Shown here: positions 12,192 through 20,819 of the stretch, one piece after another | How positions within the stretch are numbered: position 1 is the first letter of the stretch | Layout: every line of letters starts with the position of its first letter | Assembly (NCBI GenBank): GCA_964480575.1 | Contig: CAYZPE010000001.1 | Coordinates: 1 to 40,371, forward strand | Direction: 5' to 3' | Length of the DNA stretch: 40,371 nt | From: an uncultured Candidatus Saccharibacteria bacterium | GTDB lineage: Bacteria; Patescibacteriota; Minisyncoccia; Phycocordibacterales; CAYZPE01 | The notes under the pieces: model-generated | The model's input: the letters and a program-made list of their open reading frames with translations, nothing else | Told to the model about the DNA's origin: nothing | Databases searched by the model: none | Made by a program: the position numbers and the translations under genes

Positions 12192-12806
12192 ATGAGACCT
12201 TGGGATCTTTTTTTTAAAGAAAAAATAACAAAGATTTTTACTAATAAAAAATCTGTTATTGATATTGGAGGAGGTCTTCGAGTAATTAAAGAGAAAAATA
12301 ATCGTTATGATCCAAAGCGAGAATGGGTTCGTCCTCTTATTGAAAAAGTTCAATATAAAATTCTTGATCCTGTTTCTGATTACAACCCTGATATTGTAGG
12401 GGATATACATGATCTACCTTTTAAAGATAATTCTCAGGATGCGATCGTTTGTATCGCAGTTCTAGAGCATGTTGAAAATCCGATTAAAGCCTGTGAAGAA
12501 ATGCATCGAGTTTTAAAGCCTGGTGGCTACTGCTTTGTTTATGTTCCGTTTCTTTTTTACTATCATGCAGAAAAAGGATACTACGGAGATTTTTGGAGAT
12601 TCACGCCAGATTCTTTAAGGTACATATGTCGAAATTTTTCTTCAATTGAGATTCAAAGTGTGCGAGGTGCGCTAGAAACCTGGATTTATTTAAGTCCTTT
12701 GGGTAGGTTGCCGCTTTTGTCTTCAATTGCCTATTTTTTTGACCGTTTGTTAGGAAAGCTTACAAGTAAACAAGTGAGCGGCTTCAATGTTTTCTTGATT
12801 AAATAG
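12192..12806 (+). CDS. Class I SAM-dependent methyltransferase
   Basis: VIDIGGG...DAIVCIAVLEHVENPIKACEEMHRVLKPGGYCFV. Confidence 0.8.
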   Translation: MRPWDLFFKEKITKIFTNKKSVIDIGGGLRVIKEKNNRYDPKREWVRPLIEKVQYKILDPVSDYNPDIVGDIHDLPFKDNSQDAIVCIAVLEHVENPIKACEEMHRVLKPGGYCFVYVPFLFYYHAEKGYYGDFWRFTPDSLRYICRNFSSIEIQSVRGALETWIYLSPLGRLPLLSSIAYFFDRLLGKLTSKQVSGFNVFLIK

Positions 12807-14922: not shown

Positions 14923-14996
14923 CTTTTCTACTCAACATAAGGTACTGTCTTTAAAGTAGACATTTTGACAGCATTGTTGTAAATTAATTCCATTCT

Positions 14997-15788
14997 ATGA
15001 ATAAAAGGCTAACAATTAAGGAATTAAGGGCTTTGTGCCAAGCTACTGCGCCAAATCCTGCCCGAGAGAGCTTTGCAGGTCGTTTTTCACGTATTTTTTC
15101 GATATACGTTACGCGAATACTTATCCCTACAACAATCAGTCCTAATCAAATTACAGTACTAAGTGTTGTAACTTTTTTTATTGGAATCTACTTTTTCTTT
15201 CTCGGGACCGTTGTGATGAATGTTGTAGGTGCTCTGGTTATCTTTTTTTCAATTGTTCTTGATGGTTGTGATGGTGAGGTTGCGCGTTATAAAAAAAACG
15301 GAAGTGTTGCAGGAACTTTATATGTTGAACCGGTAAGTCATGATATTCAATATGGTTTAATGTTTCCTCTCCTTGGACTCGCTCTGTACCTTAATGGGGC
15401 TCCGCAATATTTTATTATTCTTGGATTTCTAGCAAGTCTTTTCAAGCTCTGGTATCGTTTGATTGAGGCTCGATTTTGGACTCTTGCAAATAATAATGCA
15501 ACAGAACAAAAGATTGATGAAATAAAAAAAGAGTATAAAGAAAAATCTTTACCTGTTCGATTTGTATATTGGATCAATAAAGAAATTTTTAGCTCAACTG
15601 GAGTCTTCCTCGTGATTTTAATTTTGGGAATCCTCAATCGGATAGACATATATCTCTGGATATATGTTGTTGGTTATGGTCTGTTCTTCTCTGCTCTTTT
15701 TACAAAGCACATCATAAAGATATCTAGTAAAAAAAAAGCCAACATATTAAAATCCCACGAATTGCAGTTGTCCTTGCGGCAGGTATAG
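14997..15788 (+). CDS. CDP-alcohol phosphatidyltransferase family membrane protein
   Basis: SPNQITVLS..., core motif LDGCDGEVARYKKNGSVAGTLYVEPVSHD (DGxxAR...G...D-type, distal part divergent), multiple hydrophobic helices. The last ~17 aa after the A9 run (ANILKSHELQLSLRQV) overlap the next reading frame and look non-native. Confidence 0.8.
   Translation: MNKRLTIKELRALCQATAPNPARESFAGRFSRIFSIYVTRILIPTTISPNQITVLSVVTFFIGIYFFFLGTVVMNVVGALVIFFSIVLDGCDGEVARYKKNGSVAGTLYVEPVSHDIQYGLMFPLLGLALYLNGAPQYFIILGFLASLFKLWYRLIEARFWTLANNNATEQKIDEIKKEYKEKSLPVRFVYWINKEIFSSTGVFLVILILGILNRIDIYLWIYVVGYGLFFSALFTKHIIKISSKKKANILKSHELQLSLRQV
15729..15737 (+). other. A9 homopolymer at the junction of the phosphotransferase frame and the nucleotidyltransferase-cyclase frame (candidate slippery site or homopolymer miscall)
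   Basis: agt aaa aaa aaa gcc in the upstream frame. A -1 shift, or one extra A, reads straight into the downstream frame (...ISSKKKSQHIKIPRIAVVLAAG...). Confidence 0.9.
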
Positions 15789-17629
15789 GAGCTCGTCTTG
15801 ATCGACCAGATAGCCCAAAACCACTCATAAAGGTTGGTAACAAGTCTTTAATAATAAGAACTATCGAACAGCTTCAAGAAGTTGGGGTTTCTCACATACA
15901 TGTGGTCGTAGGTCATAGAGGTGAAGAGGTTAAGAAAGATTTAACTGGTAATCCGGCCGTAACAGCAACTCTTGAATATATCTATGAAGAGGATGTAACT
16001 AAGGCGGGTATAATAAAAACTCTCAATCAATTATCACTCACACTGGCAGAGCCCTTTTTTTTGGCAATGGCTGATCTTGTGATTGAGAAAAATCCTTACC
16101 TTATATTTAATGAGATTCCTTTTTTGGAGTCGTCTCTGTACACTCTTGTTGATAGAAGAAAGGAGACTAATGTAGCGAGTGGGGCACTTTCTCAGGTTCA
16201 TATTTCAAGAGATGGAACCGTCACTGCTGTTGGAAGATCTCTTTCGGAATACAGCGCTCTTGAGGTCGGTATTTACTACATTACGATCAAGGCTCTTAGA
16301 AATTTGTTACATTTACAAGGAGGAAGTAGTTTACCAAGCTTGGATGGTTTACTTAATATGCTTGCAGGAATAAAGTTGCTCCGTCCAGTTTTTCTTGAGG
16401 AAGGAGAATGGTTTGATGTGAATACGCCAGCAACACATATTAAAGCCGAACTATTTGCTCGAGCAAAGAATTCTTCAGTATTTCTTCCAGCTCGAAAAAA
16501 GAATTTAAAGCTACCAGCACTTGCAACCTCTTTTACTCGCCCAAAGAAACTTTCAACAGATATTTTTATTGAAGCAGGTCTTCTGGATCGCTTAGCTGAG
16601 ACAAAAATAATTCCAGATTCTTATGCTGATGCGGTGCACTTTCTTCTGACAGATACGGTCGTTGATCTTCTTCATGCAGAGAGAGTTCTTCGAGGACTCC
16701 ATGTTTCTGGATATAATGTCCAAAAAATAGTTGTTCCCGCCGGAGAGATCTCAAAGAGTTTATCAGAATATTCCCGCATTGCTGATGAGGTCTTGAGTTT
16801 AGGTATGGATAAAAGATCCATTCTGATCAGTCTTGGTGGGGGTGTTGTAAATAATATCGCAGGCTTTCTTGCTTCAACTCTCTATCGGGGAATTGGTCTC
16901 ATTCACATACCCACAACCACCATGGCTCAGGTTGATGCAGCAATAGACTTTAAGCAAGGAATAAATTCAAGTAAAGGTAAAAATTTATTTGGTAGTTATT
17001 ACCCCGCAACATCTATCATTATTGATCCTCAGGTTTTATCAACTCTGGATGAAAGAAATCTTTTTAATGGCATAAGTGAATCAATCAAGCATGCTCTAAC
17101 TCAAGATTCTGATTTCCTCGAATATCTTCTAAAGGAGAGAAATAATATCAAGGACGTTAAGGTGCTTGAGTGTATTGTACGAAAAACAATCAATCTCAAG
17201 GTCCCACTTTTGAATGGTGATGTAAATAATGATTTTAACGAGATGATCCCGCAGTATGGTCACAGTATTGGTCATGCGGTTGAAAGGCTCTCCTCATATG
17301 ATTTACTTCATGGTGAAGCGATTGCAATAGGGATGTGTCTTTCAGCTGAAATAGCGCTCCTTCTTGGAATTTGTACCCAAGAAGTTGTGGATCTTCATTA
17401 TCGAGCATTTGAAATCTACGATCTTCCAGTTACAGTACCTTCCTATATGAGTTCTGTCGATGTGGTATCTGCAATACGTTTTGATAAGCATCACGTTGAA
17501 AAGCCTTTCATGGCTTTTGTTAAAGATGTTGGAATAATGTTTAGCGAAAATGGCCAGTACGGCATACCAGTTGATTACGGTATTCTTAAACGAGCTATAG
17601 AAATAAACAAGAAAAGACATGAAAAATAA
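15731..17629 (+). CDS. Fusion protein: LicC/IPCT-like nucleotidyltransferase domain plus a 3-dehydroquinate-synthase-like sugar phosphate cyclase domain (start codon unresolved)
   Basis: The frame opens at 15731 after the stops at 15725 and 15728. N-terminal IAVVLAAGIGARLDRPDSPKPL...WFDVNTP. C-terminal GGGVVNNIAGF, IHIPTTTMAQVDAAIDFKQGIN, GKNLFGSYYP, SESIKHAL, GHSIGHAVE and HGEAIAIGM are collinear with DHQS. There is no ATG/GTG/TTG in frame before GTG 15902, and that start would delete the NTP-binding glycine loop. Confidence 0.8.
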   Translation, partial: KKSQHIKIPRIAVVLAAGIGARLDRPDSPKPLIKVGNKSLIIRTIEQLQEVGVSHIHVVVGHRGEEVKKDLTGNPAVTATLEYIYEEDVTKAGIIKTLNQLSLTLAEPFFLAMADLVIEKNPYLIFNEIPFLESSLYTLVDRRKETNVASGALSQVHISRDGTVTAVGRSLSEYSALEVGIYYITIKALRNLLHLQGGSSLPSLDGLLNMLAGIKLLRPVFLEEGEWFDVNTPATHIKAELFARAKNSSVFLPARKKNLKLPALATSFTRPKKLSTDIFIEAGLLDRLAETKIIPDSYADAVHFLLTDTVVDLLHAERVLRGLHVSGYNVQKIVVPAGEISKSLSEYSRIADEVLSLGMDKRSILISLGGGVVNNIAGFLASTLYRGIGLIHIPTTTMAQVDAAIDFKQGINSSKGKNLFGSYYPATSIIIDPQVLSTLDERNLFNGISESIKHALTQDSDFLEYLLKERNNIKDVKVLECIVRKTINLKVPLLNGDVNNDFNEMIPQYGHSIGHAVERLSSYDLLHGEAIAIGMCLSAEIALLLGICTQEVVDLHYRAFEIYDLPVTVPSYMSSVDVVSAIRFDKHHVEKPFMAFVKDVGIMFSENGQYGIPVDYGILKRAIEINKKRHEK

Positions 17630-20279: not shown

Positions 20280-20819
20280 ATGACCGCAAAGTATTGCGAT
20301 TGGATTCCTGGTACATTTGGCCTGAAACATCCAGCAGTGCTCGTGACAGCTGATGCGCTCATTTATCAGGTTCTGGAAGGTGGTCGAATTCAGATTTTGA
20401 TCGGTACCAGAAAATCTCCCAGTCGATGGGAAGCTGGTCTTCGGATACTCACCTTTGGTGGCTTCGTTGATCCGAATGACGGGTCTATCTATGAGACCGT
20501 CAAGCGTGAAGTGATGCGCGAGGAACTCAGGGATATTGCTCTTGCTATCGACTTTGAAAGACCCTTTTTTACTGGTCCGTGCAAAGTCAGGCATCAGTGG
20601 CACAGTTATCAGCGATCGATTTCAAGCGGTGAACAGGTTCAGGATGTGCCGGTCGTCACGGCAAATTTTCTGGCACGCTATGTTGGCGGTGAGCTCAGAG
20701 ACAGTGATGAGGTCACCGCTCCTCACTGGGTTTATCTTGAAGATCTTGAAGGTGACTTTGCCTTCGATCATGCACTGGTGCTTGAGCACTTTCTGCCCCG
20801 TATTGTTTTTCAGGCGTAG
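20280..20819 (+). CDS. NUDIX-family hydrolase (divergent Nudix box), compositionally foreign
   Basis: LTFGGFVDPNDGSIYETVKREVMREEL resembles GX5EX7REUXEEXGU with a one-residue insertion and substitutions. Hand count gives 267 G+C in 540 nt (49%). Strong SD 6-7 nt upstream. Confidence 0.55.
   Translation: MTAKYCDWIPGTFGLKHPAVLVTADALIYQVLEGGRIQILIGTRKSPSRWEAGLRILTFGGFVDPNDGSIYETVKREVMREELRDIALAIDFERPFFTGPCKVRHQWHSYQRSISSGEQVQDVPVVTANFLARYVGGELRDSDEVTAPHWVYLEDLEGDFAFDHALVLEHFLPRIVFQA

Follow-up and report, generated by a model that had tools for sequence, protein, structure and literature searches.

In a stretch of 40,371 nucleotides from an uncultured Candidatus Saccharibacteria bacterium (contig CAYZPE010000001.1 of assembly GCA_964480575.1; the whole stretch is referred to below as the window), a gene for a CDP-alcohol-phosphotransferase-like membrane protein is followed by a gene for a predicted nucleotidyltransferase-cyclase that has no canonical initiation codon ahead of its nucleotide-binding loop. 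The start-less junction between these two genes is real and conserved and, judging from comparison with orthologous loci, it originated by a change in one base. Two known kinds of non-standard decoding could account for the expression of the downstream enzyme, and of these slippage on a run of nine A residues near the end of the upstream gene (the A9 tract) is favoured over initiation at an AUU codon. We estimate a probability of about one half that slippage on this tract, giving an 877-aa fusion of the two proteins, is the main source of the downstream enzyme. This estimate builds upon the observed anatomy of the junction, its conservation, the selection acting upon it, the genome-wide avoidance of A9 outside this locus and the occurrence of natural fusions with the same order of domains.

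The upstream open reading frame (ORF), which encodes 263 aa, extends from 14997 to 15788 on the + strand and terminates at a TAG codon (15786–15788) that lies 16 residues past three successive lysines (KKK). The codons for these lysines form the A9 tract (15729–15737, + strand), which reads AGT AAA AAA AAA GCC in the upstream (0) frame and is present in all five of the assemblies described below; the sequence around the junction is ...ATA TCT AGT AAA AAA AAA GCC AAC ATA TTA AAA TCC.... The downstream gene lies in the −1 frame, which is closed directly 5′ of the A run by a TAA codon (15728–15730, + strand) that is also found in the closest relative (locus L001). This TAA sets the 5′ limit for any productive frame shift, and beyond it the frame for the NTP-transferase/DHQS-like protein is open for 632 codons (15731–17629). 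Among the in-frame codons between 15731 and 15901 no ATG, GTG or TTG is present, only ATT (15746), ATC (15752) and ATT (15761) being available. The first canonical in-frame start is a GTG (15902–15904, + strand), which is the choice of the gene callers and leads to a 575-aa product (P0003). When read from the ATT at 15746, the gene (15746–17629, + strand) encodes a protein of 627 aa plus a stop codon, in which Pfam, NCBIfam and PDB matches point to an IPCT-like NTP-transferase followed by a DHQS-like sugar-phosphate cyclase. The five −1-frame codons between the TAA and the ATT (15731–15745, + strand) are AAA AAA AGC CAA CAT in the window and AAA AAA AGT CAA TTT in L001; they would encode the linker (K)KSQH of a fusion if the frame is shifted, and would be untranslated in the −1 frame if AUU is the start.

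The GTG at 15902 was rejected as the real N-terminus of the downstream protein. Positions 1–3 of the NTP-transferase profiles from Pfam and NCBIfam fall on residue 11–12 of the open frame (IAVVLAAG), and hence a start at this GTG would delete the glycine (nucleotide-binding) loop; the dN/dS of the codons preceding the GTG also argues against it. The original prediction for this locus had described the A9 tract at 15729–15737, the lack of a canonical start before GTG 15902 and the loss of the glycine loop from a protein starting there, and our reading of the sequence as well as the profile alignments agree with these points. It had also stated that none of the ATT or ATC codons has a Shine-Dalgarno (SD) sequence. 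Although this is true, it is uninformative, as 33 of the 34 other candidate gene starts in the window, inspected by eye, are likewise without an SD-like motif. The single start that has one, belonging to a GC-rich gene at 20280, is preceded by GAGGGGAGG. Reinitiation after the upstream stop (TAG, 15786) was also considered and rejected: this stop is not conserved, its counterpart in L001 being 14 codons further on, and initiation at the ATA, the one in-frame codon close by, would lose the glycine loop. On the + strand, a search of 14986–16000 detected no internal promoter or terminator, and there was no Rfam match in the window.

The ATT at 15746 is part of the tetranucleotide ATTA (15746–15749, + strand; read from the sequence and shared by L001, L002, L033, and L034), which appears to be the relic of an ATGA stop/start overlap. 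That ATTA is a one-base derivative of such an overlap was overlooked in the original prediction. The ATT occupies positions 15746–15748 in the −1 frame and a TTA positions 15747–15749 in the 0 frame, and replacing T15748 with G would alone suffice to create an ATG (15746–15748) in the −1 frame together with a TGA (15747–15749) in the 0 frame. The restored ATG coincides with the start of the orthologues (MKIPRIAVVLAAG in the window vs. MKTKKAVILAAG), whose Met aligns as M-x4-6-AVILAAG. The restored TGA lies near the ends of the orthologous upstream proteins, viz. 13 aa past the conserved K of 'LF.K' vs. 8–11 aa in the orthologues (alignment A1). A genuine ATGA overlap for the same gene pair is present in L027. 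These comparisons indicate that the upstream stop and the downstream start were lost in a single event, a G-to-T substitution within an ATGA overlap, no indel being needed. The ancestral state would have been a translationally coupled pair, in which a CDP-alcohol-phosphotransferase-like gene ending in ...KKKANI-TGA overlapped the ATG of the NTP-transferase/cyclase gene as ATGA; with the change to ATTA both signals would have been lost. Residues 1–247 of the upstream protein are homologous to the orthologues, and residues 248–263 (ANILKSHELQLSLRQV) constitute a non-homologous tail. The missing start, the run-on of the upstream protein into this tail and the differing lengths of the tails can all be accounted for by the ATGA having become ATTA; the tails differ in length (16 aa in the window and 30 aa in L001) because the position of the next stop in the 0 frame is arbitrary. 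With A9, the gene pair keeps the frame relation of an untouched ATGA overlap, a relation which A10 would break.

A search of 5.8 billion proteins listed about 120 homologues, most of them belonging to uncultured bacteria known from metagenomes (Parcubacteria/Patescibacteria among them) and some more distant ones to the Bradymonadales/Myxococcota. The orthologues of the downstream protein that were inspected are either stand-alone proteins of 604–646 aa, starting with M-x(4-8)-[AG]V[IV]LA[AG]G, or are fused at their C-terminus to the SDR encoded by the next gene. The latter arrangement, NTP-transferase/cyclase followed by SDR, is seen in P0007, P0010, and P0021 (862–908 aa). The junctions between the CDP-OH-PT-like and NTP-transferase genes vary, consisting of the ATGA overlap in L027, a TAA followed by two bases and an ATG in L030, a 52-nt spacer in L031 and a 17-nt overlap in L003. 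Beyond the window's own species, ATTA together with A9 is found only in the closest relative, P0004 (76% protein identity), which is represented by the loci L001 and L002 from two runs. These loci have AGT-A9-GTC, the same −1-frame TAA, KKSQFIKIPRIAVVLAAG and 112 codons without a canonical start. The species to which the window belongs is represented by two more assemblies, both of which have A9: L033 (Logan SRR6448207) does not differ from the window, and L034 (JGI 3300020596), a strain variant, differs by three single-nucleotide polymorphisms in 150 nt. The A9 tract, the ATTA and the ATT/ATC/ATT codons are thus all conserved in five assemblies representing three populations (window, L033, L034, L001, and L002). 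The original prediction had proposed an inspection of orthologous loci; this reveals separate genes with an ATG in about 60 cases, and ATTA plus A9 in P0004. Two other orthologues that seemed to be start-less, P0030 and P0057, were found to be gene-caller truncations with a proper ATG before the glycine loop (L027:2358 and L028:2975, respectively), and therefore a truncated database entry in this family does not show that a start is missing. When JGI metagenome contigs were scanned for the exact pattern (A8–A11, followed by ATT or ATG) there were no matches, near-identical records being outside the scan output, and no close orthologue was found in the genomes of sixty relatives.

Between the window and L001, the proportion of non-synonymous differences (pN) in the downstream gene is 0.157 and that of synonymous differences (pS) is 0.726 over the whole gene, and the corresponding values for the 52 start-less codons (15746–15901) are 0.10 and 0.60. 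The upstream gene has a pN of 0.086. As pN in the start-less part is far below pS, the codon comparisons indicate that this N-terminus is under purifying selection and is translated in both lineages. The synonymous sites are saturated between the window and L001 (pS 0.60–0.75), and the ATTA state, which both of these lineages retain, is old. Excess synonymous conservation is seen in the last 16 conserved codons of the upstream gene, which include the A9 tract (15690–15737, + strand). At conserved residues, 13 of these 16 codons are identical, as compared with a fraction of 0.50 locus-wide (P = 0.011), and for the 13 codons preceding A9 alone the count is 10/13 (P = 0.046). The 15 codons past the ATT show no excess of identity (8/14). 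A 71-nt segment centred on 15732 has 91.5% identity vs. 72.6% across 8 kb, which places it in the top 0.25% of such segments and makes it the second most conserved stretch of this locus. The highest peak of identity between the window and L001 is located at ~12210–12280 (94% per 71 nt vs. 72.6%), at the 5′ end of a methyltransferase gene (12192–12806). The codon changes between A9 and the ATT are uninformative as a test of frame, since in the comparison of the window with L001 they amount to one synonymous and two non-synonymous changes in either frame.

The sequence composition of the 609-kb genome provides further context for the A9 tract, the statistics given here being based upon a crude set of 558 ORFs. 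The longest homopolymer in this genome is of 9 nt (seven A9, two T9, and two C9, with none of 10 or more). Of the 99 KKK tripeptides, three are encoded by AAA-AAA-AAA, whereas codon usage predicts 28.8; AAA-AAG-AAA is in excess (34 vs. 14.7 expected) and AAA-AAA-AAG is depleted (6 vs. 14.7). Where lysines follow one another, long A runs are systematically interrupted. In-frame A9 is strongly, i.e., tenfold, avoided in this genome, and the other two in-frame A9 tracts are situated at codon 1 and codon 17 of their ORFs, the tract at the junction being the only one deep inside a frame. No match to the MutS domain (PF00488) was found in this 98.6%-complete genome. Due to this, the length of the tract would be expected to drift unless it is selected; yet it is nine in all five assemblies. 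Among the 558 ORFs, no other internal gene with a comparable missing start (at least 35 codons open to the upstream gene) was detected, the four other flagged cases being cuts at contig ends. Both tRNA-Lys(UUU) and tRNA-Lys(CUU) are encoded in the genome.

The geometry of the A9 tract resembles that of known slippage cassettes: a −1-frame ORF without a canonical start, a −1-frame stop directly 5′ and an A_AAA_AAA heptamer in phase with the 0 frame, which has the form X_XXY_YYZ. The tract also has the length of a slippage site (about nine or more in the coding strand), and the downstream frame is a functional ORF that lacks its own initiation codon and is reached by the addition of one base, with the caveat that a near-cognate ATT is present. 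An mRNA with one additional A and a −1 slip of the ribosome would lead to the same fusion, ...SSKKK-SQHIKIPRIAVV..., with a junction of ...SSKKKSQHIKIPRIAVV... and a predicted junction peptide of ...IIKISSKKKSQHIKIPRIAVVL. Its computed length is 877 aa (~98 kDa), close to the ~875 aa originally predicted for either event. One A fewer would yield ...SKKKPTY-stop, i.e., a near-ancestral upstream protein. According to the reading that we favour, RNA polymerase would add one A at the conserved A9, eight bases 5′ of the ATT, giving an A10 mRNA, a ribosomal −1 slip on A_AAA_AAA being less likely. The slipped share of the product would pass from ...SSKKK into SQHIKIPRIAVVLAAG..., forming one 877-aa membrane-anchored protein with transferase, nucleotidyltransferase and cyclase domains, and the unshifted product would be the 263-aa transferase with a junk tail. 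Initiation at AUU may contribute a minor share, the two routes not being exclusive.

The polymerase is a likelier slipping agent than the ribosome, because neither a stimulatory RNA structure nor an SD-like element was found and both tRNA-Lys species are present. In six folds of segments from the window and L001, no structure was stable or shared; relative to shuffled sequences, z was +1.6 for 15738–15800 and +0.1 for 15738–15840, and −0.3 and +0.25 for L001. No SD-like or GGAGG-like element is visible upstream of A9. Neither kind of stimulatory element of −1 ribosomal frameshift sites, a hairpin or pseudoknot 5–9 nt downstream or an SD-like sequence upstream, was thus found at the tract. The slippage of RNA polymerase is efficient at runs of 9 A/T, reaching ~50% in Thermus dnaX and 25–30% in Shigella spa13 (PMC5009743). 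Initiation at AUU occurs at about 1–2% of the level of AUG (range 0.02–3%; bioRxiv 10.1101/063800). By analogy, these published efficiencies from model bacteria favour slippage over AUU by ten-fold or more.

A fused protein of this kind is structurally plausible. The AlphaFold model of the upstream protein has six transmembrane (TM) helices, and with this even number its K-rich C-terminus would face the side on which the N-terminus and the active site also lie; AF2299 likewise has a six-TM domain followed by a K-rich tail. The original prediction could cite fused cytidylyltransferase and phosphotransferase proteins only in the opposite domain order (IPCT/DIPPS), and this is now superseded by two natural in-frame fusions, P0126 and P0127 (508 aa). 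In these proteins a membrane domain 40–41% identical to that in the window is followed by an NTP-transferase, and the K-rich linker of 20–24 aa between them (...YISKLSMTKKKNFTSVVLAAG) is similar to that of the window. They thus share the N-to-C order and the K-rich linker of the proposed fusion. However, they differ from it in being encoded by one continuous ORF with no frameshift, in having KKK encoded as AAA AAG AAA, in keeping an internal ATG, and in containing a paralogous NTP-transferase and no cyclase.

A history by which the downstream gene came to depend upon the tract can also be proposed. The KKK encoded by A9 would already have given some fused product by polymerase slippage, making the ATG dispensable; the change from ATGA to ATTA could then have been fixed in a small population, after which the tract would have been needed and conserved, as in constructive neutral evolution. 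That no single-step reversions to ATG have occurred may be explained by the tract having become needed in this manner. More tentatively, the A9 tract may be a selected, lineage-specific recoding device: slippage would have been left as the sole effective route after ATGA changed to ATTA, and would set a fixed ratio of free transferase to an 877-aa trifunctional enzyme that makes, activates and transfers a cyclitol phosphate at the membrane.

Several known systems have features in common with this junction. In dnaX of Thermus thermophilus (tau/gamma), a coding-region run of nine, like A9, serves as the site at which RNA polymerase adds A's so that two frames are expressed with no need for RNA structure, and the host has separate tRNA-Lys for AAA and AAG, as does the genome examined here. 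Unlike the present case, in which slippage would extend the protein and fuse two enzymes, Thermus dnaX yields its long product without a shift and a truncated one by slippage; in addition, slippage in dnaX has been proven experimentally, whereas in the window it is a prediction. In tssM1 of Citrobacter rodentium, a poly-A tract (A11) is located just before the stop codon and ~20–25% of the product continues in the next frame, and in pgk-tim of Thermotoga two different enzymes are fused by frameshifting at the 3′ end of the first gene, as is proposed here (PMC4256274). The junction in the window differs from these in having A9 rather than A11, in joining a membrane transferase to a nucleotidyltransferase-cyclase, and in its apparent origin by substitution in an ATGA rather than by an indel. 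The −1 frameshifting at A_AAA_AAG in E. coli dnaX and IS elements similarly involves an in-phase heptamer located where a 0-frame ORF overlaps a −1-frame ORF that has no start of its own. However, A9 is without the downstream hairpin or pseudoknot and the SD-like stimulator of these systems, its heptamer ends in A and not G, and AAA-AAA-AAG is itself depleted in the present genome. Our search revealed no paper on programmed slippage in Patescibacteria.

A number of observations weigh against slippage as the main route. The conservation of the junction rests on two lineages, deeply diverged from each other, with only a single diverged relative that possesses it. Based on codon usage alone, KKK would be encoded as A9 with a probability of ~0.29, and as the tract is at the extreme C-terminus of the upstream protein, where frameshifts are harmless, the avoidance of A9 may simply be relaxed at this position. 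The approximately 60 orthologues that are separate genes with an ATG include none that is fused to the upstream gene, a query with the 877-aa fusion (first 247 residues) retrieved no fused orthologue of the cyclase-bearing gene, the only fusions obtained being the paralogous P0126 and P0127 and the TagF-like N-terminal fusions P0123–P0125, and no in-frame A10 variant is present in the collection of 5.8 billion proteins. The NTP-transferase of P0126 and P0127 is a paralogue that can be aligned over only ~60 residues. Further, the ATT at 15746 is conserved and is located exactly where the orthologues have their ATG, so that AUU initiation needs no extra assumption, and the region 15700–15800 is unusually unstructured (z = +2.3, folding worse than all 200 shuffles), as suits an initiation site. 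The original prediction had regarded a firm A9 together with orthologues that have their own ATG as a refutation of the fusion. This combination is literally what is observed, but slippage is not refuted by it, as the lineage in question has lost that ATG.

The main alternative to slippage is that the downstream gene is translated from AUU at 15746 (or AUC at 15752) as a separate protein of 627 aa, in which case A9 would be a mere KKK tail and perhaps part of an A-rich unstructured leader. We take this possibility seriously, while considering it somewhat doubtful. Besides the alignment of the ATT with the Met of the orthologues and the lack of structure around it, the length of the AUU product matches those of the orthologues, the ATT, ATC and ATT codons are conserved in all five assemblies, and the absence of an SD motif is no obstacle in a window where nearly all other starts also lack one. 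AUU starts are moreover proven for E. coli infC and pcnB (10.1101/063800), and the ATT at 15746 is like these in occupying the ancestral ATG position and in being conserved in relatives. However, the AUU of infC serves the autoregulation of IF3 and no such logic is evident for an enzyme of a glycan pathway; also, with the upstream stop gone, the AUU in the window is now inside a translated ORF, which would hinder 30S loading. The low yield of AUU in E. coli (about 1–2% of AUG) likewise disfavours this start, and single-step reversions to ATG (T15748G, and also at 15752 and 15761) were open and yet have not been taken across a saturating synonymous divergence. Initiation at AUU also leaves it unexplained why the length of a tract that the rest of the genome avoids tenfold has remained exactly nine in the absence of a MutS match, and why the excess synonymous conservation is on the 5′ side of the ATT, including the A run, rather than on both sides. 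The lack of any other internal gene with a comparable missing start in this genome adds to these difficulties.

With regard to the use of AUU in this genome, the start of the organism's own infC (IF3) gene was also inspected and is ambiguous. In the corresponding region (G000:C34:1907-1945 + 1967-2024), no ATG or GTG is present between a terminator-like hairpin and the N-domain, and the possible starts are TTG 2006, which precedes the domain by six codons, ATA 1997, and ATT 1973.

It was also suggested originally that the tract could be a phase-variable switch. In such a case, variation at the DNA level would turn the decoration of a surface glycan on and off, with the fused pathway produced in A10 cells (ON) and little or none in A9 cells (OFF). 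The locus is indeed a surface glycan/teichoic-acid-like cluster, with genes for glycosyltransferases, TagF-like and flippase-like proteins and nonulosonate synthesis, no MutS was found in the genome, and two anomalous C9 tracts, in the absence of C7 or C8, look like contingency loci. However, A9 is the consensus in all five assemblies from three populations with no length variant in any of them, the fused product of an A10 gene is absent from the protein collection and, if A9 represents the OFF state, the purifying selection would have to act through a minority state in both lineages. We therefore consider phase variation at this tract improbable. The two C9 tracts themselves are located outside the window (G000:C13:1113-1121 and G000:C11:8135-8143), in a genome of 39.8% GC that is without C/G runs of 7 or 8. 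One of them, which encodes GGG(G), is inside a 533-codon frame for a secreted protein ending in a discoidin/fucolectin-like NPWWQVDL motif, and the other precedes a lipoprotein-like gene by ~100 nt; the two are candidates for phase-variable contingency tracts.

Two further explanations have very little to commend them. Runs of a single base are prone to error and the assembly contains none longer than nine, but an assembly or sequencing error concealing a single gene with a true A10, as was also entertained in the original prediction, is very unlikely, as A9 is agreed upon by five assemblies from different pipelines and samples, one substitution restores ATG and TGA at the orthologous positions with A9 (a correspondence that is lost with A10), and there is no genome-wide sign of frameshifted genes. 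Equally hard to credit is a recent pseudogene, a downstream gene that has lost its start and is decaying, as its lack of a canonical start and truncation by gene callers might suggest; both lineages keep an uninterrupted frame of 632 codons, dN falls far short of dS in the gene as a whole as well as in its start-less part, and the start-less state predates a saturating synonymous divergence.

The assignment of the upstream protein as a CDP-alcohol phosphotransferase is weak but real at the family level, and such an activity would be predicted for it. It matches PF01066 (CDP-alcohol phosphotransferase) with 28.4 bits vs. a cut-off of 22, its sequence match in the PDB is 4O6M, and its AlphaFold model (pLDDT 74.9) matches AF2299 with a TM-score of 0.60–0.63 and a probability of 1.0. 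Residues D89, D92, G93, and R97, which belong to the D-x2-D-G-x2-A-R motif, are invariant in alignment A1, and the second half of the motif is G..EPVSHD instead of the canonical GxxxDxxxD. Within 15261–15341 of the window (residues 89–115), the subfamily retains D-G-x-D-G-x2-A-R and has G..(Y)xEPVSHD in place of G-x3-D-x3-D; H115 is invariant in nine sequences. In P0123–P0125 (706–713 aa), the CDP-OH-PT-like domain is preceded, within one polypeptide, by a TagF-like glycerophosphotransferase domain.

In the downstream protein, PF12804 and PF00483 match residues 12–117 and PF01761 and PF24621 match residues 333–587, and the PDB matches are 3CLH and 2D2X (DHQS and DOIS) and 4MND (IPCT). The score for NCBIfam aroB (TIGR01357) is 253.7 bits, below the equivalog cut-off of 305, and that for TIGR04425 (AroB-related cyclising phospholyase) is 185 vs. 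a cut-off of 400. Its C-terminal domain can be assigned on the basis of these profile matches to the DHQS superfamily of sugar-phosphate cyclases, with no equivalog assignment. The NTP-transferase part and the membrane part are matched by the IPCT and DIPPS domains, respectively, of the Archaeoglobus fulgidus IPCT/DIPPS (4MND), and the chemistry is probably analogous to that of IPCT/DIPPS and AF2299 (4O6M), in which a cyclitol phosphate is activated with CTP and then transferred. Unlike IPCT/DIPPS, in the window the domain order is reversed, a DHQS-like cyclase is added and one half of the motif is G..EPVSHD; the scores against the family NF041135 (54.9 and 31.2 bits) are far below its cut-off of 580. 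None of the domains attains an equivalog cut-off. The neighbouring genes encode two PhyH-like dioxygenases, an SDR, an APH-family kinase, a second NTP-transferase, TagF-like transferases and a flippase-like protein. The likely chemistry of the pathway is that a sugar phosphate is cyclised, reduced, phosphorylated and activated with an NTP, followed by transfer of the resulting cyclitol phosphate to a membrane or glycan acceptor.

Annotation pipelines currently shorten this enzyme to 575 or 524 aa, with loss of its nucleotide-binding loop, and hence this step is wrong in pathway reconstructions for these genomes. Should slippage be the route of expression, a reduced genome without a MutS match would have lost a start codon and come to depend upon the infidelity of its polymerase, along an evolutionary path, from ATGA to ATTA, that could be read base by base, and the few cellular genes known to be joined by transcriptional slippage would gain a metabolic, membrane-anchored three-domain fusion. 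If the enzyme is instead initiated at AUU, it would have a conserved non-canonical start of a kind that is rare beyond infC and pcnB, and this in an organism whose genes seem seldom to carry SD motifs. The pathway itself, consisting of the cyclase, SDR, kinase, NTP-transferase and CDP-alcohol transferase, would represent an uncharacterised route for cyclitol-phosphate decoration that is widespread in the Patescibacteria.

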